Positions 4,894 to 32,291 of a DNA stretch of 64,000 bases are shown piece after piece; position 1 is the first letter of the stretch, and every line of letters starts with the position of its first letter. Made by a program: the position numbers and the translations under genes. The stretch is from a virus (lineage: Duplodnaviria > Heunggongvirae > Uroviricota > Caudoviricetes): positions 1 through 64,000 of the IMG/VR virus record IMGVR_UViG_3300049596_000323; one strand, 5' to 3'. The notes under the pieces are model-generated. The model saw only the letters and a list, made by a program, of their open reading frames with translations, was not told the origin of the DNA and ran no database searches.

Positions 4894-5757
4894 TTATATA
4901 CACCCACCATCACATCTTGAAAATACGTTTAACGTTAATGTGTTTCCAATATCTCCACTTGTAACAATATATGTTGCTGAAAATAAAGTAGTAGAACCAT
5001 TACCGCATGAAGCATCTGCTATAATACCAGATGTGTATGCGTTTGCTTTATCGTCAGGATTAGTACATCCATATGTAGTGACTTCAACATTAATTGAATC
5101 ACCCATAGAAACAGCATATATACCACTTGCATTTGTACTTCTACTTTCAACAACTGAACCATTTACATATAAATCCATATTACCAATAACACCTGAACCA
5201 CTTTCATTAAAAGTCCAAGATAAGTTCGCAGTTGAAGCAGTGTTACAAACTACAGTGAGTCCATTGTAATTACATTGAGGTATAGTAGTTGTACTAGTTG
5301 TAGTGCATGGATAGTTTGCATAACAACATCCTGAATAATTCACAGAAGATAAACGAACACCAACAACTGAACCTCTTAAAATTCCACAACCTGTTACAGG
5401 TCCACCTTCTCCTCCAGATGAACATGCAATAATTCCTATAGACCCACCGTAAGGAAGATAATAATAATATGTATTTCCAGAACAATCTTGATATGATATA
5501 GTTTGACTAAATCCATCTGACATTTGATTATATACTTCAACACCTGATACACAAGGACATGGATAGTCTTGATATTTAGGAGCTCGTGTATCAGGATAAG
5601 TAGACCAAGGGCTAACTGTACCATCTATATAGTAGTTAGTACTAGCTTCTCCTTTGCTCATAATACTACCATCAAGAGGAGGAGTTGTCCCAGGCTTCTG
5701 TATATATCCCATTGTAGCAAGATCTGCTCCTGTTACTAAAAAATTACTAACTTTCAT
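4894..5757 (-). CDS. Cys-rich tail-fibre-like protein
   Basis: 287 aa; many Cys pairs (CPC, CC, CG) and a TTTSTTTIP linker; adjacent to the fibre genes. Confidence 0.35.
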   Translation of the reverse strand: MKVSNFLVTGADLATMGYIQKPGTTPPLDGSIMSKGEASTNYYIDGTVSPWSTYPDTRAPKYQDYPCPCVSGVEVYNQMSDGFSQTISYQDCSGNTYYYYLPYGGSIGIIACSSGGEGGPVTGCGILRGSVVGVRLSSVNYSGCCYANYPCTTTSTTTIPQCNYNGLTVVCNTASTANLSWTFNESGSGVIGNMDLYVNGSVVESRSTNASGIYAVSMGDSINVEVTTYGCTNPDDKANAYTSGIIADASCGNGSTTLFSATYIVTSGDIGNTLTLNVFSRCDGGCI

Positions 5758-7619
5758 TATTGGTTTAATTTAGCTTCTAATTCTGCTATGCGTTTTTCTA
5801 ATTGTGCTATTTTTAATGTATGTACATCTGAATAGTTAACTACTAGTTTATCTTCTCCTGATACAACATCTGGTAAAATTGCTTGTACCTGTTGTGCAGA
5901 ATATCCATATCTAATTTGATTAGACTCTTCATCTGTACGAGTAAATTTAATCACTTGTATTCCTAATACATCAATATTAGGATTTGTTTCTAATACATTT
6001 TTAAATCTGATATCTGATGTTTCATAGAATGAACCAGCATTTAATTGAGAACCACTAATTGTAACTCCTGTATTTGCTGTTGCACTGTTTGATGTACCAT
6101 TTGCTGTAAGAACAGCTCCTGATGTTGTAGGAGAAATGGAATTAAATCCTGCTCCATTAGCTCCACTAGTTCCAGAAGTTCCAGATGTACCTCCTGTACT
6201 AGCTCCTGAAGAACCAGAAGTACCAGAAGTACCCCCAGTGCTAGCTCCAGATGTACCTGAAGTTCCTCCAGTACTTTGACCTGAAGACCCTGAGGTACCA
6301 GATGTACCACCTGTACTTTGACCTGAAGATCCACTGGTTCCAGTTGTACCAGAAGTACCTGTTGTTCCACTTGTGCCAGTTGTTCCACTTGTGCCAGTAG
6401 TTCCACTTGTACCGCTTGTACCTGAAGTTCCAGACGTACCAGAAGTCCCTGACGTTCCACTCGTACCAGATGTACCAGTGGTTCCAGATGTGCCTGATGT
6501 GCCAGTGGTACCGCTAGAACCAGCTGTTCCAGATGTTCCTGAACTACCAGCAGCACCTACAGGAACTAACATAAATACTTCACCACTAGCAGGATTTGTA
6601 CCCTGAGCTGCAGTTTGAGTAACTATAAATCGTTCAAAACCCACTTCAAAAGGAGAAGTGGATACAATTTCTAATATTTTAAATCTAGAAGAATCAACCG
6701 TACTAACTAGCTTAAGTGCTGAGAAAGGGTTCAGTGCATCTAGATATGCTGAGAAGTCAGCACTAGGATTATATGATAAATCACTGATAGCAATTTGAGA
6801 AGCAGAGGCTAACCAACTTGCATCATTTAAAGTGAAATATGTAGCACCAGGATTAATGTCTGTGTTTGTACTAGGATTAAATCTCCATTGTGCAAGACCT
6901 CCTTCAAAGCCTGATGTACCAGATGTGCCAGTTGTTCCACTGGTTCCAGTTGTTCCTGAAGTACCAGTGGTACCAGAAGTACCAGTTGTTCCACTTGTGC
7001 CAGTAGTTCCAGAAGTTCCAGTTGTACCACTAGTACCTGTTGTTCCTGAAGTTCCAGACGTACCAGTTGTTCCATGAGTACCATCTGTACCACTTGTACC
7101 AGAAGTTCCATCTTCACCACTTGTTCCAGCAGTACCAGATGTACCTGTAAGACCACTTGTACCGTTTGCACCACTAGTTCCATTAATACCACTTGTTCCA
7201 TCAGCACCTCTTCCACCAGATGTTCCACTGGTTCCTGAAGCACCGTTTGTACCACTTACACCAGAGGTACCAGAAGTACCGTTACCACCAGAAGTACCAT
7301 TGGCACCAGATGTTCCAGATGTACCAGAAGCTCCTGGTGTACCGTTAATACCAGAAGTTCCTGATGTTCCACTTGTACCACGAGTGCCAGAAGAACCAGA
7401 CGTACCTGAAGTACCTGTTCCTCCACCACCTGTACCAATGGCATCATCTAATTTTTCTATAGCAAGAGTTAAGCAGTTTCCGTTTTGAACTCCTGAGTTT
7501 GGTAAATTAGGACCAACGTATATTACATTATTTGAATTGCTAATGCACTCAGCACATCCACAGTTTTCACTAGGATGATAATAAGCGTTATAGCAAGGTG
7601 TACCAGGTAAACAAGACAT
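5757..7619 (-). CDS. collagen-like tail fibre with C-terminal intramolecular-chaperone (peptidase S74-like) domain
   Basis: Two long Gly-X-Y tracts (GTSGTSGT...) flank a non-collagen domain. The C-terminus SDIRFKNVLETNPNIDVLGI...LEKRIAELEAKL matches the auto-cleaving chaperone of phage fibres and endosialidases. Confidence 0.7.
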   Translation of the reverse strand: MSCLPGTPCYNAYYHPSENCGCAECISNSNNVIYVGPNLPNSGVQNGNCLTLAIEKLDDAIGTGGGGTGTSGTSGSSGTRGTSGTSGTSGINGTPGASGTSGTSGANGTSGGNGTSGTSGVSGTNGASGTSGTSGGRGADGTSGINGTSGANGTSGLTGTSGTAGTSGEDGTSGTSGTDGTHGTTGTSGTSGTTGTSGTTGTSGTTGTSGTTGTSGTTGTSGTTGTSGTTGTSGTSGFEGGLAQWRFNPSTNTDINPGATYFTLNDASWLASASQIAISDLSYNPSADFSAYLDALNPFSALKLVSTVDSSRFKILEIVSTSPFEVGFERFIVTQTAAQGTNPASGEVFMLVPVGAAGSSGTSGTAGSSGTTGTSGTSGTTGTSGTSGTSGTSGTSGTSGTSGTSGTTGTSGTTGTSGTTGTSGTTGTSGSSGQSTGGTSGTSGSSGQSTGGTSGTSGASTGGTSGTSGSSGASTGGTSGTSGTSGANGAGFNSISPTTSGAVLTANGTSNSATANTGVTISGSQLNAGSFYETSDIRFKNVLETNPNIDVLGIQVIKFTRTDEESNQIRYGYSAQQVQAILPDVVSGEDKLVVNYSDVHTLKIAQLEKRIAELEAKLNQ

Positions 7620-7638
7620 TTATAGTTGATTTAGAATA

Positions 7639-8742
7639 TTAAGGAATATACATGATGTAATAAGAAGCAATTACAGGTTGAATGTTTGGATGACCTTGAT
7701 TACTACCAGTGTTTGTGTTGCTTACATTTACAGTTGTTGCTACAGTGATACCTGTTGTAGAAGTTGTAGTTTGAACATTCTTTGGTGTTCTATTTACAAT
7801 ACCAATACTACCTGAACTATCCCAACCTTCTGGTGTATTACCAACATAATGACTATGCCCAGGATCTGTTACAGTGGATGAAGCACTTGCTGTTGCAGTG
7901 TGTGTGTGACTAGGAAGTTGATTAACATTTATAGCCACTGTGTTTGCACCAGCAATATCTTCAAGATCATAATTTGGATTACCAGCATAAACAGGATCTA
8001 CAGCAGCGGTTAATGGTCCACCAGGAACATTAAGAATAGCTCCTACACCAACTCTACCTCTTTTATCAGGAGTGCCGTTAGAACCATTACATAAATAGAT
8101 TTTATCCCATCCTAATGTTCCTATACCAGCACCTGTACCATCAAAGTTTGTAAGAGGACCATAGTATTCAACTACTGTAAAAGGAACCATCTTTAAATAG
8201 TTCTGAGTTACATTACCTGATTGACCAGCTATGTAAGCAGCTATTAATGCATCTAGGTCAGACAGCTTTACATAGTTTGTGCTTACATCTAAATCTAATG
8301 CTGCTAAATCTGCCACTACAACACAAAGTCTTGTAATAACAGCTTGTAAGATAGCATGTGTGTCAGAAGAGGCTGTTACACCTGTAAGACAATCTATTGT
8401 ATAATCTGCATTTAATACAGCAATATCAGCAGCAACTGCAGTCACCTGAGCTTGTAAACTACAAACAGATTTAACTAACGCTGTGAATAATTGAGTAGAA
8501 TTAGGAGAAGTGATTCCTATTAAGAATCCATTTATAAGAGCACATTTATCACCAGAAGCAATAGTTATAACATCACCTGTACCAGTTAATAACGGAACAA
8601 GTTTAGTTGTAATCATTTCTTCTACATGAAGCAATGTATCTCCTGTAGTAATATTTAGAGCAGGGATAGTTGGACCTGTATATCTAACACATTGATCAGA
8701 TACAGTCTCAACACATCCATTAAAACAACTTGTACAAGACAT
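7639..8742 (-). CDS. tail fibre protein with phage tail-collar domain
   Basis: WDKIYLCNGSNGTPDKRGRVGVG...LPSHTHTA resembles the T4 gp12-type tail-collar domain motif. Confidence 0.6.
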   Translation of the reverse strand: MSCTSCFNGCVETVSDQCVRYTGPTIPALNITTGDTLLHVEEMITTKLVPLLTGTGDVITIASGDKCALINGFLIGITSPNSTQLFTALVKSVCSLQAQVTAVAADIAVLNADYTIDCLTGVTASSDTHAILQAVITRLCVVVADLAALDLDVSTNYVKLSDLDALIAAYIAGQSGNVTQNYLKMVPFTVVEYYGPLTNFDGTGAGIGTLGWDKIYLCNGSNGTPDKRGRVGVGAILNVPGGPLTAAVDPVYAGNPNYDLEDIAGANTVAINVNQLPSHTHTATASASSTVTDPGHSHYVGNTPEGWDSSGSIGIVNRTPKNVQTTTSTTGITVATTVNVSNTNTGSNQGHPNIQPVIASYYIMYIP

Positions 8743-12803: not shown

Positions 12804-14357
12804 TTAGAATTGAGGAATTTCTTCAATCAATACTGTTCTAGATAAATCTTCAATGAATACATCACAACGATCTTTCATCCAGATTTCGTATCCTGGGAAT
12901 TTATTTGCAGAACTCATACCTTGAGACTTAGCAAAGCCTAAGTGGTGACGAGTACCATCAATATAACCCCAAGTCATAGAAGGAGCACCCTTCATACGTA
13001 CTTCACGAATGTTGTTGATCATAGAACCATCAGACATTGGAGATACATCAAACACCATAAATACTGGAGTTGACTTCTTATTCTGACCAAATTCTAAGTT
13101 TGTTTGAGGAAGATCTAATTCTTTCAAGTGGATCAATTCAACACGACCAGTCTCACGTGTAACCATTGCATCAAATGCAAAGTTGTAAGTAATGTGTTGA
13201 CCTTCTCCTTGTAAATATCTGTTACCAGAATCAGCCATGAAAGTTAAACCTGAATTCAATGCATCATTCTTTAAAGCTTGTTGGAACACGTCAAAACCAG
13301 CTTCGTTAGTGTACATTTTAACTCTACGATCCTTAACATCAACACGTCTGTAGAACAAGTCACCAAACACTGAACGAATCAAGTTTGCAGTGAACTCACC
13401 ACGGTTGTATTGTACTAAGTTACCGTTATTACGCATTCTGTGGTAAACACCAGCAGATGTACGCTTTAATTCTTGCTTAGAACCATTAGTCTTCACGGTA
13501 CCAGGCTTAGCCCAGATCATACGCTTAACTTTTAATTCTAACATAGACTTACGCATCCAGAACTCAATAAATGGTTCCCACTTAACATCATTACGAGTTA
13601 AAGGTAATTGGTTACGTCTTTGAGGAGCATATACTAAAATGTCTAAAGCTTTACCAGAAGCATCAACCATCATCTTATCATCAGCCCACTCAGTGATTTT
13701 GTGCTCATAACCATATGCAGAACCTAAAGATTCAAACATTGTGATTTGCTCACCTAAACGAGGAAGACCTAATAAGTCTTGGTCAAATTCACCAATTGCA
13801 GCATCAACTAATTCCAATTCAATACCAACTCTTAAGAAGTTAGGACTAACGAAATCTACAGTTGGATTGTCTGTAACTAAAGTGAAAGTGTATAAGTAAC
13901 CCATGTTCCAGTTTACTGGATCTTTGATTACATAGAAACGAGGACCATACTGACGAGTACCTACAGATACAATTGCATTCTTAGAGAACTCATTAGTATC
14001 AATTACTAATTGGAATTCTTGACCATCAATACCTGGCTTGCTCAGCTCTAAAGTACTTGTTGGAATGTCAATGATTTTAGGGAACTTGTATGGAACTTGT
14101 ACCTGCCACTTCCAAGCATCACTGTTGTTGTCAATATAGTAAGGAGTGCTCTTGTTAATCATGTCCAAGAAGTCATTACTGTAAAGAGAGCTTTGAGTAT
14201 ACAAACTGATAATTTTCTTATCATAATCTGCTGGCTCTGTAGAGTGAAAGCTTTCCAAGTGGTTAGCATCTGTTAATTTACCTACAGCACGCTTGTCCAT
14301 AGAAGCTACTCTTGCGTAAGTAAAACCAGTTAAACCTGGAATTGTTTGAATTGCCAT
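12804..14357 (-). CDS. major capsid protein candidate
   Basis: 517-aa ORF immediately after the scaffold gene, in the terminase-portal-scaffold-capsid order; called by position only. Confidence 0.5.
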   Translation of the reverse strand: MAIQTIPGLTGFTYARVASMDKRAVGKLTDANHLESFHSTEPADYDKKIISLYTQSSLYSNDFLDMINKSTPYYIDNNSDAWKWQVQVPYKFPKIIDIPTSTLELSKPGIDGQEFQLVIDTNEFSKNAIVSVGTRQYGPRFYVIKDPVNWNMGYLYTFTLVTDNPTVDFVSPNFLRVGIELELVDAAIGEFDQDLLGLPRLGEQITMFESLGSAYGYEHKITEWADDKMMVDASGKALDILVYAPQRRNQLPLTRNDVKWEPFIEFWMRKSMLELKVKRMIWAKPGTVKTNGSKQELKRTSAGVYHRMRNNGNLVQYNRGEFTANLIRSVFGDLFYRRVDVKDRRVKMYTNEAGFDVFQQALKNDALNSGLTFMADSGNRYLQGEGQHITYNFAFDAMVTRETGRVELIHLKELDLPQTNLEFGQNKKSTPVFMVFDVSPMSDGSMINNIREVRMKGAPSMTWGYIDGTRHHLGFAKSQGMSSANKFPGYEIWMKDRCDVFIEDLSRTVLIEEIPQF

Positions 14358-16333: not shown

Positions 16334-18916
16334 CTATTTAGTTTTCTTGTTCGCCCTACCTTTAGCATTCTCTTTAGCAATAGCTAAATCATTTGCTTGA
16401 TTCTCTCTAGATACTTTTAACTTTTCTTTTTCTACTTCAAGTTTTTGTAAAGCTAATGTATTTTTAGATTGAATATCGTTCATTTTTAATTGATAATCAT
16501 TAGCAGCTTTTGTTTGTTCACGCATTAATTTATCAACTTCTAAAGCATCAGGAACTCCATTTATGTCTGTATCTGGTAATCCCCCTTTAGATTCAGCAGA
16601 AATAATAGCAATTTCTTTCTTATTAATTCTGTCTAATGCATTTTGATAATCATCATGAGCTATTTTTTCAGCTTGCATTTGTTTAGCACTTTCAATAGCT
16701 GCCATAGATTGCTGTTGCTGTTGCTCAAGTTCTTGTTGCTTTTGTTGCATTTGTTGATCTTGCATTTGATCTTGACGATCTTTAAGTGTCTTAAACACCT
16801 TCTTCATCTGACGTACAGAGTTAGTGCTGTAAAGCTCAATGATATCATGTAATGAACCACCGTTTTGTAAAACAGCTTGAGATAAGCCTCTAATTTCATT
16901 AAACATTTTCTGATCTTCTGGTCTATTAGTTAAATACACTTTAAGATCACGGAACTTAAGATCTGTACCATTCACTTGTACAAATGCAGATTCTCCTTCG
17001 TTAGTAATATATGAAATAGTTGACTCAGGTTTTTTAGCTTCTACATATAGTGATGCATCAATTATAGCTTGATAAAGCTGACCTAATACGTATTCATGTG
17101 CAACAAATATAGGCTCAGTTTGAGAATATGATTGTGTAATAGCAGTGTTAGTACCTGTAGCTGATTCACTAGCTGAAATAGATCCCATACGTTGTCTAGA
17201 CATACCTATCAATTCCCAACACTCATTCTTTAATTGTTGAGCTAGTGTATATCTAGATTGGATCTCTTGCGTACGTGTAAGATCAATATCACGGAACTGG
17301 TTAAATGATGATGGGCTCTTCAAATTTTCTGGAGAGTCATCAATAAACATTACACCACGGTTACGTGCTTCCATTTCCCATACATCAAGAGCATCTTGAG
17401 CATCTCCATCTTTAGGAATAGGAATATGTCTAATAGATGTTAAATACACCTTACCAACTTCTTTTTCTAACAGCTTGTATAATTGATTCATACAAACGTT
17501 ATAAAGAACCTGAAAAGGTTTCATCATATCTACCAAGCTTCTAGCTTCTGTATTCTTAACTTCATGTACTAATCCAATGATAGGACAATAAGGAAGTAAT
17601 TTATATGGTTTAATATGATAGATGTCTGGACCAATCTTAACTCCTTGGTACCATTCATTAATCCATCCCCACTCTAACGATTGTTGTGTAGGAATAGTTC
17701 CAGATTTGTAGTTTTCATCTACTAGTAAAGATTGCTCATTACCTAACTCATCTAAGTAAATTAATTTACCAATCTTCTTTTTAGAAATCCAATATGTACG
17801 TACAACAACATACTTGTAACCAAATGAACTAACATTAGATGTAAGACCTAAGAAGTCTTGTAAGCCATCATTGTTCTCTTTCATTTCAGACTCAATTACC
17901 ATTCTTGTTTGTAACACTAATGGATCATATGTATCATATTGTACTGAATCAATACCTGGAATAGCATTAGGATTACCTAGATTAGATTCACGTACGTTAA
18001 TCAAACCATAGTCTTGTAATGAACTACGTAAGTGATCAATCTCTTCTTTAGTGATATCAGGGAACGTTTCAATAATCTCAGATAGTTCCATCACCATAAC
18101 TGTACCAGCAGCATATGCTCCTTGTGCACGTCCTGAAGGATCTGAAATATATTTTCTATCTGGTGTAGTTAAGAAGAATGTATTCTTAGGGTTAGCCACC
18201 TCAATATTAAATCCAACTTTTGAGTTATCTTCATATACATGATAGAACTCTCTAGAAGAAATTAATAAATCTCTAAACGCATCTTCACTTTTTTCTTTTA
18301 AAATAAACTCAGCTTTCTGAGCTGTTAATACATGATTAGCCCACTTCTCTGCAACAGATGTATAAGAATCAAGTTGATCTTTTACATCCTCCATTGTCAT
18401 TTTTTGCAAGTCTTCGTCAGAGATTTCTTCTCCTTTTAAATCAGCTTGTTCTTGTATTTTAGACTGAGCTTGATTAATTACATAATCTTGTAATATACTT
18501 GTTTTAAATTCAAGCTCTTCAGACTTACTATCATCATCAAATGCCTTCACACGGAAAGCATCTGGACGTTTAGAAATCTCACCTACTAATTCATTAATAG
18601 GTGTTGTCATTATAGAATAATGTTTTACATATGCAGGAAGCTGTAAATCAGCTGTTAGCATATCTGTAAAACTTCTCACCTCAGGTTCTTGGTAAAAATC
18701 CTCATGTCTTAAAATACCCTTAACAAGATCGTAGTTCTTAACAAACGTATCACGGTTCTTTACATACTCAGCGTAAGCTTTGTTTGCAAAGTAGTCCATT
18801 GTATTCTTTATCCAACTCTCATCCATCTTTTCCTTCTCAGTTTTAAACTGATCAGGGAAGATGTTTAAATAGGCATACCTAATTGTTGCGTCTTTTGTAT
18901 ATCTTATAATTGCCAT
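16334..18916 (-). CDS. portal protein candidate
   Basis: 860-aa ORF directly downstream of the large terminase; Q-rich coiled-coil C-terminus (QDQMQDQQMQQKQQELEQQQQQ). Confidence 0.5.
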   Translation of the reverse strand: MAIIRYTKDATIRYAYLNIFPDQFKTEKEKMDESWIKNTMDYFANKAYAEYVKNRDTFVKNYDLVKGILRHEDFYQEPEVRSFTDMLTADLQLPAYVKHYSIMTTPINELVGEISKRPDAFRVKAFDDDSKSEELEFKTSILQDYVINQAQSKIQEQADLKGEEISDEDLQKMTMEDVKDQLDSYTSVAEKWANHVLTAQKAEFILKEKSEDAFRDLLISSREFYHVYEDNSKVGFNIEVANPKNTFFLTTPDRKYISDPSGRAQGAYAAGTVMVMELSEIIETFPDITKEEIDHLRSSLQDYGLINVRESNLGNPNAIPGIDSVQYDTYDPLVLQTRMVIESEMKENNDGLQDFLGLTSNVSSFGYKYVVVRTYWISKKKIGKLIYLDELGNEQSLLVDENYKSGTIPTQQSLEWGWINEWYQGVKIGPDIYHIKPYKLLPYCPIIGLVHEVKNTEARSLVDMMKPFQVLYNVCMNQLYKLLEKEVGKVYLTSIRHIPIPKDGDAQDALDVWEMEARNRGVMFIDDSPENLKSPSSFNQFRDIDLTRTQEIQSRYTLAQQLKNECWELIGMSRQRMGSISASESATGTNTAITQSYSQTEPIFVAHEYVLGQLYQAIIDASLYVEAKKPESTISYITNEGESAFVQVNGTDLKFRDLKVYLTNRPEDQKMFNEIRGLSQAVLQNGGSLHDIIELYSTNSVRQMKKVFKTLKDRQDQMQDQQMQQKQQELEQQQQQSMAAIESAKQMQAEKIAHDDYQNALDRINKKEIAIISAESKGGLPDTDINGVPDALEVDKLMREQTKAANDYQLKMNDIQSKNTLALQKLEVEKEKLKVSRENQANDLAIAKENAKGRANKKTK

Positions 18917-20958
18917 TATGTAAACAATTTATTTCTTTTATATTTATTATGAGAGGTTCCAAACATCCCACCTCTTGATTCTGTAAACAGTACGTTTCCT
19001 TTCTTCTTACTAAACATTGCCTTCACTCTATCATCAGATGTTCCACCAATCTTACCCATAATAGGGTCCATCTTTAATGCTTGTGCAATGGCTAACTCTG
19101 CAGCAATGATTCTATCAAAGTTACCTGAATCATTGTATTGTATAATCTCTTCAAGCAATACAGGATCAAATATCTTACTCACCCCTAGAACTTCTCTTAT
19201 AGTATCACCAGCCTCATTTGTTTCTTTGAATATCACAGACTCCATATACTTCTTTAAGCAGGTGTGAAGATACTCAATTATTTTGTCACTTGAACGATGA
19301 ATTCCATAATCTCTTTTAACTGTTGTGTTTGGAACAATTTCTTTAAGCCATTCAGGTTGTTTCTCTAAATAGTGAGCATCCCCTTTGGCCTTCATATATT
19401 CTATAAATGATATATCATCATTCTCACACAGTGTTCTTGCATTGTAATACTTAATAAGAAGTCTAGCTTGTTCTTCCCAAATCTCTTTCTTATCAGGTCT
19501 TGCACAATACGAAGCTACGAACATATCTTGATACTTCTCACCACTAATTTCATGCATTCTTTTATATATGAATACAGAACCAAGTGAACTTGAATACACA
19601 GACTTACCTTGTCTATAAGGGTCAACTCCTGCTACATACAATCCATAAGGAGGGTTTTCTACAGGGAATTCATATATAACTATAGGAGCATCTTTTGTAT
19701 CACTGTTCTTTAATGGAAAGTTAGATATAGGAAGCTTGTCTGTAAACTCATGCTCAATACCATTTTCTCCAGAGAACAATGTAACAGGAGTTCCTGTTCT
19801 TTCTTGTTGTAACAGTCTGGTTTTCTGTCTCTTAGCTGATTCAATATCAAAGATGTTTGTATCCTCATTCAAGAAGATATCATCCACCTCCATTGGGTAG
19901 TACATCTTCTCCTTCAAATAAGCAATTCTATCTCCAGCCTTTTTAAGTCTTTCTAGGTTCTTCTCTGTAATCTCTTTAGCTCTTTCCTCATCACCCACTA
20001 ACATTTCAACGTTATATAAGTCTGATCCAGTAGGCTCATTTAAGAAAGCTCCTAATGTAGATTTCTCTTTAGCTTCCATTCTATATTTAGCTGGGATGAA
20101 TAAGCCATGTATACGCTTATCATCTTTTGCATTATTATATGTAAGGAAATTAAAGTTGTCTACGTCAAACATCAGGGATTTTGCATCCTGAAATTTCTTC
20201 ATATCACCACCAGTGCCTGTGAGAATTGGAGAACATCCCCAACCATAGGGTGTAGTGAAACCTGGTATAGCCGCCTGTAAACCTCTAAGAAAATTTCCTT
20301 TACCAATCTCATCTATAATTAATTTACGTGGTTTTGTACCTGCAATTGCTTCTTCATTATTACCTTCATCAAGGTTACGTATCAGAATGGAAGAGAATGG
20401 GATACGTTCACCAGATTTGGTTTTAATACCTAATGTGACCTGGTTTTTCCAGTTATCCTCAATTCTCTGCCATCTCCAATACTCAGGGATAAAGTTTAAT
20501 CCTTTATCTATTTTATCCGTAATAAGTTTTATATCTGGTGCATTCAAACCAGCAATAATATTCTGGGAGTTCTCATCAAATGTTGCACCCCATGCAATAT
20601 AGGATGCTTCAAGAACGGATTTAGCAAAACGTCTAATACCTAGAATAACCAAGCCCTTTTTTTCCTGTTGGGCTCTATCAATTTCGTTTGTTACCAGCCA
20701 CTCATTATCTCTTAAAAACGGATTAGCATATTTTTGTGCAATTCTTCCTCTATCATCTATGACATCCACCTCAGTGTGCCATATATTTAGGTGCCAATAT
20801 AAAAAGGGGTTGATATACACACCCCCCATCATAGCACCATTTAAACATAATTCTCTATGGAAATCAAAGAACGGTTTACATTCAGCAGATTCCTTATCAG
20901 GAATACGTTTCTGATTTATGAACCAATCTTTGTAATCTATGTTTTGTAGTTCAATCAT
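18916..20958 (-). CDS. terL: terminase large subunit
   Basis: ATPase-like LVILGIRRFAKS and KLIIDEIG, then a nuclease-type LYVAGVDPYRQG; 680 aa, upstream of the portal. Confidence 0.7.
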   Translation of the reverse strand: MIELQNIDYKDWFINQKRIPDKESAECKPFFDFHRELCLNGAMMGGVYINPFLYWHLNIWHTEVDVIDDRGRIAQKYANPFLRDNEWLVTNEIDRAQQEKKGLVILGIRRFAKSVLEASYIAWGATFDENSQNIIAGLNAPDIKLITDKIDKGLNFIPEYWRWQRIEDNWKNQVTLGIKTKSGERIPFSSILIRNLDEGNNEEAIAGTKPRKLIIDEIGKGNFLRGLQAAIPGFTTPYGWGCSPILTGTGGDMKKFQDAKSLMFDVDNFNFLTYNNAKDDKRIHGLFIPAKYRMEAKEKSTLGAFLNEPTGSDLYNVEMLVGDEERAKEITEKNLERLKKAGDRIAYLKEKMYYPMEVDDIFLNEDTNIFDIESAKRQKTRLLQQERTGTPVTLFSGENGIEHEFTDKLPISNFPLKNSDTKDAPIVIYEFPVENPPYGLYVAGVDPYRQGKSVYSSSLGSVFIYKRMHEISGEKYQDMFVASYCARPDKKEIWEEQARLLIKYYNARTLCENDDISFIEYMKAKGDAHYLEKQPEWLKEIVPNTTVKRDYGIHRSSDKIIEYLHTCLKKYMESVIFKETNEAGDTIREVLGVSKIFDPVLLEEIIQYNDSGNFDRIIAAELAIAQALKMDPIMGKIGGTSDDRVKAMFSKKKGNVLFTESRGGMFGTSHNKYKRNKLFT

Positions 20959-28549: not shown

Positions 28550-28859
28550 TGATATATATCGTTATCTTTGTGATGCTAACTGTCATTGTATGGATGTCCT
28601 ATGAATTTCATAGGGCTCCATTCATTGATAAAGATGGCAACATAATTAAAAAGAAAAAGAATGATTCTTCAACTGAATCCAATGATACCTATCATGAGAT
28701 ATTCTGATGGAATGGAAGGTTATGCTTTCTTGGTTATAGATTATAGCCAGGAGCATAATCTTCTATTTACTTGTGCCATGGATAATGGTGAAATATGGAC
28801 ATTGAGTAATAAAGAAATCAGATTCTGTAAGAATATATCTTTAGATAGAAATACATAAT

Positions 28860-29273
28860 GGGGGTGTACTGGCTTTGACAGACATGAGGCTGGTAGTATC
28901 ACATGCAAGCCTTGGAACAGGTAAACAAGTTCTAAACAATAACCGTAAAGAGTCAATCTGAGCGTGTTGAAGAAGGTGCTAGCATTATTGCTATGGCTTT
29001 CGCTTCTGAGTTAGCATTAGCTGCTTAGTCAACTGGGTGGTAACAACCTGGAAACAGAAAGTTACAAGCGTTTTCTCTATTATGTCAAAATAGAGTGGTG
29101 GTAGATAGCAAACCCTGCGATCCCAACTACTGATTAGAAGTGCTTAGGACTATGTAGTAATACATTGTAATTGCTCTAAGTAAATGTACATGAACAGCTT
29201 CAGATCTAAGCATGTAAGAATGGTATTATTATCACTTGTCTGGACAGGGGTTCAACTCCCCTCACCTCCACAA
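28860..29273 (+). ncRNA. ssrA: tmRNA (transfer-messenger RNA), phage-encoded
   Basis: The 5' GGGGGUG pairs with the 3' CACCUCC through a G3-U wobble, as in E. coli tmRNA. The 5' region carries ACUGGCUUUGAC (like GAUUCGAC). The T-arm is GGACAGGGGUUCAACUCCCCU. An internal tag ORF ends ...AFASELALAA with TAG at 29026-29028. Confidence 0.8.
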
Positions 29274-29296
29274 CATTAACAATTAAAAAACACAAC

Positions 29297-29563
29297 ATGG
29301 CAAAAAGTAAATTAAAGGTAGAAGACATGAATGCTCATTTCTTTATGAGTATACGTGGTAATCATGTAGACATTATATATCATGATGATTCAAATGGTGC
29401 AGGACTTGGTGCTGGATTAGCTAGCGTAATGGAAGAAGATAAAGAATTGCTTAAAATATTCAGTGCTGCATTACTAACAGCTCTTGAAGGAAAAGAGAAA
29501 TATAGTTCTAAAAAGAGCAATAAGTTGCCTAAAACACCAACAAAAGCAGCAAAAAAGAAATAA
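29297..29563 (+). CDS. hypothetical protein with Lys-rich tail
   Basis: 88-aa ORF. Confidence 0.35.
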   Translation: MAKSKLKVEDMNAHFFMSIRGNHVDIIYHDDSNGAGLGAGLASVMEEDKELLKIFSAALLTALEGKEKYSSKKSNKLPKTPTKAAKKK

Positions 29564-30338: not shown

Positions 30339-32291
30339 ATGAACGTACTCATCTATGATATAGAAACCATGCAGGAGCTGTTTCTAGTTTGTATATATAA
30401 TCCTGAAACACAGCAATGGCATGAATTCCAGGTGAGTAAAAATACAAACCAAATTGATGCCTTTGTTAGAATGACAGAAGACTACAAAGACTTCTATTGG
30501 GTAGGTTATAACAATCTACGCTTTGACAGTCAAGTGGTTGAGTGGATCATACGCAATCATCAGAACTGGCATGAAATAGGTGCACTAGATGTATGTGCAT
30601 TGATAGCTCAGAAGGCTGCAGATATAATACATGATGCAAACTATGATGTATTCCCAGAATATAGGGAAGAATGGCTAGCTAATAAGCAAATTGATTTGTT
30701 TAGGGTGAATCATTATGATAATAAGAACAGACGTGTATCATTGAAAAGATTAGAGTTTGAGATGGATCTAGAGAACATTGAAGAGATGCCCATTCATCAT
30801 ACAAAGACTAACATGACAGATGATGAAATAGAACTAACTATTGATTACTGTCGTAATGATATATATGCCACTTATGAATTCTATTTGGTAACAACAGGTG
30901 TCACTGAACATCCATTATATAAGGATAACAATCAGATAGAGCTCAGACAAGATATTGAAGAAGAGTTTAACATACCATGTCTTAACTATTCAGATAGTAA
31001 GATAGGTGATGAAATGATTAAGAAATATTATTGTCAAGAGAAAGGTATACAATATAGTGAACTACCAAAGAAAGGATACTTTCGTAAAGAAGTTAAAGCT
31101 AGAAACTGTATAGCTGATTATGTAACATTCCAGACACCAGAACTACAAGGATTCTTAAAGCATATAAAGAAACAAATCTTTACGCTCACTGATGATTTTA
31201 AAGAGTCATTAGTATTCTATGATAATACATATACGTTTGCTAAGGGTGGTTTACATACAGAGAACAAGCCCAAGATATTTGAAGCTGATGAAGATGTAGA
31301 AATTATTGATTGGGATGTTAGTTCATACTATCCAGCTATTATCATTAACAATGGTCGCTATCCACAGCATTTAGGTAAAGAGTTTCTTAGAGGATACAAA
31401 CAGATGTTTGAGAAGAGACTAGAACTCAAGCCATTAGCTAAGAAAGATAAGAAGATAGCAGGTATTGTTGGAGCGTTGAAGTTAGCAGTTAACTCTGTGT
31501 ATGGTAAAAGCTCTGACATGCAAAACTGGATCTATGATAGACAACTAACCATGTTCACCACTATTACAGGTGAGCTTAGTTTACTTATGCTAATTGAAGC
31601 CTATGAATTAAATGGTATACATGTTATATCAGCTAATACAGATGGTGTTACAGTTCAGATAAAGAAGGAACTATTGCAAAAAATGCATGAGTTAAACAAA
31701 TGGTGGATGGAACTAACTACATATGAACTAGAGCGTACAGATTATGCTAAGATTATATTCTCAACAGTAAATGACTATTTAGCAATTAAAACAAATGGAG
31801 AAATTAAAAAGAAAGGCGATTTCCTCACAGATTTTGAGCTTCATAAAAATAAGTCTGGTCGTGTTATTCCTTTGGCTCTTGAACAGTATTTTGTTCACAA
31901 TATACCTATTGCTGACACTATCACCAATCATAATAATATATATGATTTTGCGTTAAGGCAAAAGGCTAGCAAAGACTTTCATTATGAAGGTGTAGCTGGT
32001 GCTAAAAGAACAGTGTACAATAAGTTGATTCGTTATTATGTATCTAATACAGGAGAAAAGCTCTTAAAGATAAAGAATCCTGATTGTACAACTAATGCTG
32101 CAGATGTGTCACAAGTGGAAGCAGGTGAATGGCTAATGACAGTTTGTAATAAACTAAGCAAAGACCATTCTCTAGATAACATTAACCACGCATATTATAT
32201 AGAGCGTGCTGAGCGTATTGTATATAAGATACAGCTTGAAGGTAAGAAAAGAAAAATTATTGTTAATCCAAATCAATTAAATTTATTCTAA
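30339..32291 (+). CDS. family B DNA polymerase with 3'-5' exonuclease
   Basis: Exo I YDIET, Exo II YNNLRFD, Exo III YCRNDIYATYE; pol motif B KLAVNSVYGK (Kx3NSxYG); motif C SANTDGV. Confidence 0.75.
   Translation: MNVLIYDIETMQELFLVCIYNPETQQWHEFQVSKNTNQIDAFVRMTEDYKDFYWVGYNNLRFDSQVVEWIIRNHQNWHEIGALDVCALIAQKAADIIHDANYDVFPEYREEWLANKQIDLFRVNHYDNKNRRVSLKRLEFEMDLENIEEMPIHHTKTNMTDDEIELTIDYCRNDIYATYEFYLVTTGVTEHPLYKDNNQIELRQDIEEEFNIPCLNYSDSKIGDEMIKKYYCQEKGIQYSELPKKGYFRKEVKARNCIADYVTFQTPELQGFLKHIKKQIFTLTDDFKESLVFYDNTYTFAKGGLHTENKPKIFEADEDVEIIDWDVSSYYPAIIINNGRYPQHLGKEFLRGYKQMFEKRLELKPLAKKDKKIAGIVGALKLAVNSVYGKSSDMQNWIYDRQLTMFTTITGELSLLMLIEAYELNGIHVISANTDGVTVQIKKELLQKMHELNKWWMELTTYELERTDYAKIIFSTVNDYLAIKTNGEIKKKGDFLTDFELHKNKSGRVIPLALEQYFVHNIPIADTITNHNNIYDFALRQKASKDFHYEGVAGAKRTVYNKLIRYYVSNTGEKLLKIKNPDCTTNAADVSQVEAGEWLMTVCNKLSKDHSLDNINHAYYIERAERIVYKIQLEGKKRKIIVNPNQLNLF

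Follow-up and report, generated by a model that had tools for sequence, protein, structure and literature searches.

An earlier note, made from the letters of a viral DNA stretch of 64,000 nucleotides (positions 1 to 64,000 of the IMG/VR record IMGVR_UViG_3300049596_000323, called the window below), had proposed a transfer-messenger RNA (tmRNA) gene at 28860-29273. Our analysis bears this out, and to judge from the sequence the window very probably carries a functional, phage-borne, one-piece tmRNA gene of an uncultured crAss-related phage whose host is probably a member of Bacteroidota. The computation shows a canonical anatomy, a frame-setting U-A, covariation in the main helices, frame-preserving evolution of the tag and a tight embedding between phage open reading frames (ORFs). 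ARAGORN and Rfam agree on the gene, and all features listed in the note lie where it had placed them. In Rfam (release 15), the model RF00023 matches 28860-29273 with 88 bits (E=8.3e-33), compared with a gathering score of 47, and this match is far beyond chance. The alignment runs end to end (model positions 1-374) and is the sole Rfam hit in the 64-kb window. ARAGORN reports one RNA gene in the whole window, which is the tmRNA at 28860-29271 (+) with the tag VKSQSERVEEGASIIAMAFASELALAA.

The anatomy (Table 1) is shared with bacterial one-piece tmRNA (SsrA, RF00023): a tRNA-like domain with G3·U, discriminator A and T-arm, the long helix P2, the pseudoknots PK1 and PK2, a U-A frame setter, a resume codon starting with G, and a tag that ends in ALAA before a stop codon. 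Unlike bacterial one-piece tmRNA, the window gene is phage-borne, has a 27-codon tag, does not encode CCA, is divergent in the PK3/PK4 region and has no adjacent smpB. The acceptor stem with its G3·U wobble, which the earlier note had described, was recovered as GGGGGUG paired with CACCUCC and followed by the discriminator A at 29270. The 5' box UGGCUUUGAC is present in the sequence as well, and the T-arm AGGGG-UUCAACU-CCCCU was found with a loop of the GUUCRANUC type.

Table 1. Features of the tmRNA gene and its neighbours (window positions)
Feature	Position	Strand	Details and evidence
Mature tmRNA (ssrA) gene	28860..29270	+	411 nt to discriminator A; ARAGORN, Rfam RF00023, homologs in related phages
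Acceptor stem, 5' strand GGGGGUG	28860..28866	+	G3 (28862) in G·U pair; 7/7 pairs form in 8/8 aligned homologs
Long helix P2, 5' strand (gene positions 20-47)	28879..28906	+	RNAalifold and pair counts
Pseudoknot PK1, GCC/GGU and UUGGAAC/GUUCUAA	28909..28935	+	H-type pseudoknot at the same place in 8/8 homologs
Frame-setting U-A	28940..28941	+	A four nucleotides 5' of the resume codon; U81 and A82 invariant
Tag reading frame, resume codon GUA, 27 codons VKSQSERVEEGASIIAMAFASELALAA, stop UAG	28945..29028	+	ARAGORN and Rfam alignment
Pseudoknot PK2, CUGGG/CCUGG and GUAAC/GUUAC	29033..29065	+	Hand-drawn; stems 92% and 100% paired
Variable region, usual place of PK3/PK4	29066..29204	+	One covarying hairpin, 29075-29095
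Long helix P2, 3' strand (gene positions 351-383), with conserved CUAAGCAUGUA	29210..29242	+	RNAalifold and pair counts
T-arm, 5-bp stem AGGGG/CCCCU, loop UUCAACU	29246..29262	+	100% paired in alignment; compensatory changes in 4/5 pairs
Acceptor stem, 3' strand CACCUCC	29263..29269	+	Pair counts and homolog comparison
65-aa ORF upstream	28661..28858	+	Stop codon ends 1 nt before the tmRNA
88-aa ORF downstream	29297..29563	+	Starts 24 nt after the CAA tail, 27 nt after discriminator A
Phage DNA polymerase	30339..32291	+	PHROG 1252, E=2e-140; anchor of the replication-gene block

Relatives were gathered with the DNA polymerase encoded at 30339-32291. At least 9 of 80 related IMG/VR contigs have a homologous tmRNA upstream of this polymerase and in the same orientation as it, and more were found on other contigs. 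ARAGORN located the gene at this place in L003-L006 and L044, and Rfam together with an nhmmer profile added L015, L046, L065 and L047, all of which ARAGORN had missed. Additional contigs were recovered with a conserved 23-nt stretch of helix P2.

Eight homologs were aligned (alignment A1). On this alignment, RNAalifold predicted the acceptor stem, P2 and the T-arm, and 26 of 71 pairs are changed on both sides. Pairs were also counted on a hand-written structure made of P1, three P2 segments, both PK2 stems, one hairpin and the T-arm. Standard pairs occupy 91.9% of cells, as opposed to 42-50% with the partners slid, and compensatory changes occur in 22 of 51 pairs, as opposed to 4-8 with the partners slid; none of 500 shuffles reaches the observed pairing and covariation. 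For P2 (helices 2-4, three segments), both sides have changed in 10 of its 22 pairs, while compensatory changes are seen in three of the five pairs of the second PK2 stem and in four of the seven pairs of the hairpin at 29075-29095. The sequence of PK1 differs among all eight homologs, at the same position. The 5' strands of the acceptor stem in 17 homologs read GGGGGUG, GGGGCCG, GGGCCCG, GGGGCUG, GGGGAUG, GGGCCUG or GGGGGUA, and the 3' strand matches each of them. Within the stem, covariation affects positions 4-7, and all 17 share G1-C, G2-C, G3·U and the discriminator A. A fixed G3·U amid a covarying stem is the pattern that would be expected if alanine charging were selected. Besides, the indels in the tag among the eight homologs are 3 or 15 nt long, all multiples of 3. 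Taken together, the covariation of the helices, the fixed G3·U and discriminator A, and the in-phase indels of the tag indicate that the gene is maintained by selection.

The reading frame with an ALAA ending, another claim of the earlier note, is confirmed: its last codons are GAG UUA GCA UUA GCU GCU UAG, which encode ELALAA and a stop at 29026-29028. ARAGORN and the Rfam alignment give the same resume base, G86 of the gene (28945 of the window), which is preceded by U81-A82 and then ACC, and both U81 and A82 are invariant in alignment A1. In E. coli, the frame is set by U85-A86, whose A precedes the resume codon by four nucleotides (PMC2481249), and U81-A82 of the window tmRNA has the same spacing. 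The window shares its resume codon GUA (Val) with its closest relatives, whereas L015 and L065 use GCA or GCU. The tags of the family include VKSQSERVAEGEAILASIFATEYALAA, AKSKSERVAEGASIIAMAFASEVALAA, AKTQSQRVSEGEAILASLFSDVAVAA, DKRQQEGAAIIRMAFAADKAIAA, VELSTMDFEGLMAFVGGELEIAA and DNKSTFSFEDAMSFVGADLAVAA, among others. Of the 45 pairwise comparisons among ten tags, 43 give a ratio of non-synonymous to synonymous change (pN/pS) below 1, and the constraint is clearest in an E-G-x-x-I-(I/L)-x-x-x-F core and at the A-x-A-A end. We relied on the phase of indels and on pN/pS over ten tags, because a codon-position count in six close tags gave a weak third-position excess (13/9/16). L355 and the window differ in the 11-codon core by four synonymous and two non-synonymous codons. 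The native Bacteroides tag GETNYALAA, a strong degron, has the same last four residues (bioRxiv 10.1101/2025.03.18.644028).

The tag of L003 (L003:6473-6556) deserves a separate remark. The L003 tmRNA is 95% identical overall to that of the window, yet the middle of its tag, GEAILASIF, resembles GEAILASLF of the distant L065 and not GASIIAMAF of the window, which suggests recombination within the tag.

The genomic end CCACAA had been called unusual in the earlier note, and it proved to be ordinary, as the relatives vary after the discriminator A. In 18 homologs, the three bases at this place are CAA, CCA, CGU, CUC, CAC, CCU, CUG, CUA or CUU, and about 4 of the 18 encode CCA. From these varied trinucleotides it follows that CCA is not encoded in most copies and needs post-transcriptional addition, a step that the tmRNA of the window would require as well and that is plausible.

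The RNA most likely acts in trans-translation with the alanyl-tRNA synthetase (AlaRS), SmpB and CCA-adding enzyme of the host, by analogy with established tmRNA biology, from which all of the following steps are drawn except the encoding of CAA, which is observed. The gene would be co-transcribed with the replication genes on the + strand, host RNase P would cut the 5' end out of the polycistronic transcript, and the 3' end would then be trimmed. Because the gene encodes CAA, a host nucleotidyltransferase would add CCA, and host AlaRS would charge the tmRNA with alanine via the G3·U pair. Host SmpB and EF-Tu would accompany the charged tmRNA into ribosomes stalled on broken or stop-less mRNAs, and translation would resume at GUA (28945), adding Ala and 27 residues that end in ALAA. 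Tagging would free the ribosome and mark the protein for host ClpXP-type proteolysis, and truncated proteins in infected cells would bear tag ends ...AVKSQSERVEEGASIIAMAFASELALAA. The likely benefit would be that ribosomes stay available while phage and host nucleases make truncated mRNAs. Whether the phage would gain extra rescue capacity under mRNA cutting, amino-acid recycling or resistance to RNA-cleaving defences is speculative, and the roles proposed in the earlier note (rescue during takeover, re-tagging of host proteins) are speculation too. To our knowledge, the role of phage tmRNA genes has never been established experimentally.

The surrounding genes agree with the earlier placement of the tmRNA in a phage and not in a host chromosome, and put it in the replication-gene block. 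Searches against PHROGs identified a portal protein (16334-18916, -), the large terminase (18916-20958, -) and the major head protein (12804-14357, -), as well as tail fibres, rIIA, rIIB and ribonucleotide reductase. Among the 98 ORFs of the window, Pfam found Crass_capsid, CrAss_Ring_2, crAss001_48, RecA, DnaB, dUTPase and UDG. By GC skew and ORF orientation, the tmRNA lies in a + strand block at ~23.7-55.9 kb that holds the replication genes. There is no promoter-like or terminator-like site adjoining the tmRNA and no enrichment of such sites, as judged with a sigma-70 consensus that is probably wrong for the host, and the tmRNA is most simply read as an excised part of a polycistronic transcript.

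The large terminase is 40% identical to that of Leptolyngbya phage Lbo-JY46, 33% to those of Cellulophaga phages phi17:2/phi4:1 and ~26% to those of crAss-like phages, and the capsid protein matches Lbo-JY46 only (25%). No nucleotide relative of the locus was found in GenBank phages, where the last 30-35 nt of the tmRNA alone match other phage tmRNAs. IMG/VR contains 435 relatives of the polymerase, and their contigs reach ~118 kb. The source phage, ~115 kb in size, belongs to a large uncultured family distantly related to Crassvirales. A Shine-Dalgarno-like motif precedes 2 of 92 ORFs, the leaders being A-rich and G-poor. The stop codons of the window are TAA (72), TGA (11) and TAG (9), with no sign of stop-codon recoding among the 92 ORFs. 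The host is probably a member of Bacteroidota because of the relatives and the lack of Shine-Dalgarno motifs.

Several observations weigh against a functional gene in a Bacteroidota phage. The host assignment itself draws on two things, the relatives and the scarce Shine-Dalgarno motifs. The gene of the window does not encode CCA, as genomic 29271-29273 is CAA. There is no SmpB gene in the 64-kb window by Pfam (98 ORFs) or by tblastn with an E. coli SmpB query, and function therefore depends on compatibility with the SmpB of the host. The constraint on the tag residues, as far as ten tags can tell, is real but mild, with a median pN/pS of ~0.66. The region of PK3/PK4 (29066-29204) aligns poorly to the Rfam model, with low posterior probability. 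When the fold was checked for PK1-PK4, PK1 and PK2 were found, while the PK3/PK4 stretch yielded one covarying hairpin only. The total length of the homologs is 343-471 nt, with large indels in the PK3/PK4 region, and PK2-PK4 are replaceable in E. coli (PMC2481249).

The distribution of the gene counts on the same side, since many close relatives do not have it. In L012, L035 and L040, the homologs of the flanking 65-aa and 88-aa ORFs are adjacent, with only a 17-nt spacer, and in L023, L028, L041 and L053 small hydrophobic ORFs lie between them. No tmRNA was found in the first 50 kb, including the polymerase region, of Leptolyngbya phage Lbo-JY46, the closest cultured relative. The polymerases of gene carriers are 75-97% identical to that of the window and those of phages without the gene 78-85%. 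As the phages without a tmRNA fall within the range of the carriers, repeated loss or exchange is implied. Besides, L047 (1645-1863), a relative of L046, contains a 219-nt copy which has lost ~139 nt: it retains the tRNA-like domain and P2, and is without the 3' strand of PK1, the resume region, the tag and PK2. Either this copy is decaying, or it represents a tag-less form comparable to that of mycobacteriophage DS6A. The tmRNA is accessory, because some close relatives have it and others do not, and the missing genes and the tag-less L047 copy show that it is dispensable and can decay.

Seen across relatives, the slot at 28859-29296 is a swap site, occupied by the tmRNA, by one or two small hydrophobic ORFs, or by nothing except the 17-nt spacer.

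The less expected feature of the gene is its 27-codon tag, which is about three times the usual length and which we offer as a lead rather than a firm result. Among 92 bacterial tmRNAs with the identical 27-nt 3' end, tag length ranges from 8 to 16 aa (median 10), whereas tmRNAs on viral contigs that share this end have a median of 28 aa, and 15 of 16 fall between 21 and 32 (n=16). The viral sample was chosen with a 29-nt pattern containing the 27-nt 3' end (loci L083-L109 are viral, L110-L229 bacterial). The tags on viral contigs are acidic, with a recurring hydrophobic or aromatic core, such as EADAFLEATGF, AVLASIFEDE and NADEFLVEE.

The difference in length, set beside the 10 aa that are the most frequent tag length in the tmRNA database (PMC11915505), speaks for an explanation in which trans-translation takes place and the long tag is the point of it. 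The ~17 extra residues, an acidic hydrophobic segment with the conserved E-G-x-x-I-(I/L)-x-x-x-F core, might send proteins to a different fate, e.g. another protease or adaptor, faster turnover that recycles amino acids, or sequestration. The core EG(A/G/E)(A/S)I(I/L)...F is indeed kept despite strong nucleotide divergence, as in L355. However, phage tags can be short (11 aa in Streptomyces phage Wakanda, 13 aa in crAss-like cr7_1), pN/pS is overall just mildly below 1, an altered tag template barely affects ribosome rescue in E. coli (PMC2481249), and there is no known partner protein. The broader viral sample is also mixed in tag length, and confounded by host genes beside prophages: a broad degenerate T-loop/acceptor pattern in IMG/VR returned mostly tRNAs and host-like short-tag tmRNAs that probably flank prophages, and is not a clean sample. 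The literature searched gave no paper that deals with long phage tags, and no cultured relative was found for L101, another long-tag tmRNA. On balance, such a specialised use of the tag seems unlikely, though it is the best of the alternatives. Equally tentative is its extension to other environmental phages (the crAss-related family and several unrelated tRNA-rich phages), which might carry their own long-tag type of tmRNA that is not a recent copy from hosts, the extension being adaptive and the fate different from that given by the 9-11-residue tag of the host. Tags of this type would perhaps be 23-32 residues long and combine an acidic segment with a conserved hydrophobic or aromatic core ~8-11 residues before the C-terminal x-A-A.

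The patchy distribution, with a 17-nt spacer at the tmRNA site of three relatives, and the deleted L047 copy with its lost tag frame are what one would see if the gene were a decaying passenger, acquired from a bacterium or another phage and drifting to loss with no role in infection. However, every main helix has compensatory changes, the identity elements are invariant, and the frame is intact across homologs whose polymerases are 75-97% identical. Similarity to the sampled bacterial tmRNAs does not extend beyond the 3' 30-66 nt, which excludes a recent capture. We therefore regard a mere passenger as highly improbable.

The tag-less L047 variant would also fit an antagonist or decoy, that is, an RNA which soaks up host SmpB or competes with host tmRNA and so shuts down rescue and tagging in the host. 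Such a role has been proposed for the molecule of DS6A, which comprises little beyond the tRNA-like domain, and in E. coli a molecule like it inhibits tmRNA (PMC4131195, PMC11915505). The window copy, however, keeps PK1, the U-A, the open 27-codon frame and the stop codon; a decoy would have no use for these conserved parts, and there is little chance that the window copy acts as one.

The earlier note had also regarded the 3' end as an integration-site mimic; in that case the sequence would serve as an attP-like copy of the 3' end of host ssrA. Many temperate elements do integrate in ssrA and carry its 3' fragment (discussed in PMC9004378), but this claim found no support. The gene is complete and not a 3' fragment, no integrase or recombinase family occurs among the 98 ORFs of the window (Pfam), and the closest relatives are crAss-like phages of lytic type. 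The 27-nt 3' end, moreover, is common to tmRNAs of Verrucomicrobiota, Fibrobacterota, Lentisphaerae, Clostridia and Spirochaetes, which points to no particular host, and we consider the mimic scarcely credible. The same end was tried as a guide to a bacterial donor or host and rejected: more than 120 genomes of many phyla share it, the rest of the RNA is unmatched, and it contains no host signal. Finally, a bacterial tmRNA fragment mis-joined to phage sequence, as host DNA or an assembly chimera, is almost certainly not the explanation, for although the gene has a GC content of 42% compared with ~31-33% around it, higher GC is normal for structured RNAs, the gene begins 1 nt after one phage ORF with the next one 24 nt past the CAA tail, and the recurrence of the same arrangement in the same phage context across many independent metagenomes refutes it.

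As a class, the phage tmRNA is not new, contrary to what the earlier note implied. Examples go back to mycobacteriophage Bxz1, and ~2.3% of sequenced phage genomes contain a tmRNA (PMC4131195, PMC9004378). One survey found them in 402 of 18,146 phage genomes, and its table includes several Bacteroidota phages (PMC9004378). They have been catalogued in Bxz1-type mycobacteriophages and Bacillus phage G (PMC4131195) and reported in huge phages (PMC7162821). Like the window, the Bxz1 group and Bacillus phage G have a complete one-piece tmRNA with no phage SmpB reported (PMC4131195). These are large lytic phages, which differ from that of the window in host phylum and phage lineage, with no detectable sequence relationship. 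The Bxz1 tag is also long and acidic. The DS6A molecule, a phage tmRNA derivative which consists of the tRNA-like domain only (PMC4131195), resembles the L047 copy in being without the tag frame, whereas the window gene keeps the messenger part.

Permuted forms are known as well. In the crAss-like Burzaovirus cr7_1 and cr124_1 (RefSeq annotation), the tmRNA lies among small early or replication-side ORFs, as in the window, and over the last 35 nt it shows 94% identity to the window gene. However, it is two-piece and circularly permuted (RF04321, 66 bits) with a 13-aa tag by ARAGORN, while that of the window is one-piece with a 27-aa tag. The two-piece tmRNAs of cyanomyophages and pelagimyophages (S-SSM7, S-CAM1, Melnitz, HTVC008M; PMC9004378) are likewise phage-borne and located in the early region, and the 3' end of the window is found in several of them. 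The tags of S-CAM1 (21 aa) and S-SSM7 (31 aa) are, as in the window, longer than typical host tags. Unlike the window gene, these tmRNAs are permuted and come from cyanobacterial or alphaproteobacterial lineages, and some are coupled to a glutamine riboswitch, an element that Rfam does not find in the window.

ARAGORN missed about one third of the homologs, including L015, L046, L047, L065, L358 and L359, which score 60-85 bits in Rfam. Cellulophaga phage phi14:2, listed in Table S1 of PMC9004378, was considered as a comparator and left unused, since its ARAGORN call is atypical (L354:4031-4500) and Rfam finds nothing in the first 50 kb. The missed homologs and this doubtful call mean that counts of phage tmRNAs made by ARAGORN only are imprecise in both directions. 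The locus stands as a well-supported example from a large, abundant, uncultured crAss-like relative. Its significance is modest, as the tmRNA class itself is known, and the parts worth following are the long conserved tag and the natural variants. The natural contrasts within the family (gene, no gene, tag-less copy) could be used to ask what the gene contributes, and the bacterial versus viral difference in tag length at a shared 3' end is a concrete, testable lead.

Some further observations concern the gene and its surroundings. Within the variable PK3/PK4 region, 54 nt (29146-29199) are 94% identical to an intergenic sequence of L053 (2091-2144), a relative without the tmRNA in which the match sits elsewhere. 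The L006 tmRNA, nearly identical otherwise, has unrelated sequence in place of 29146-29199, and this stretch may be a small recombining or mobile module. On the opposite strand, the 5' part of the tmRNA is overlapped by a 71-aa ORF (28741-28956, -), which is almost certainly spurious and which automatic pipelines could wrongly annotate as a gene. In three relatives, a GC-rich hairpin followed by a U-run stands within 4-6 nt of the 5' end of the tmRNA (L015:786-820, L044:6340-6370 and L065:4675-4707), and L065 has another after the gene (5155-5220). These hairpins could serve in termination, processing or stabilisation, and the window copy is without such GC-rich hairpins.

For the neighbouring polymerase, the match is split in L359, L361 and L366 into parts of ~320-390 aa and 260-330 aa that lie ~1 kb apart, which suggests an intron, intein or homing-endonuclease insertion in some members of the family. 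A LAGLIDADG gene adjoins the polymerase in Lbo-JY46. Away from this locus, the tail-fibre protein at 5757-7619 (-) contains collagen triple-helix repeats (Pfam Collagen, 2e-30), and the local GC content peaks at 0.42 there (6001-8000).

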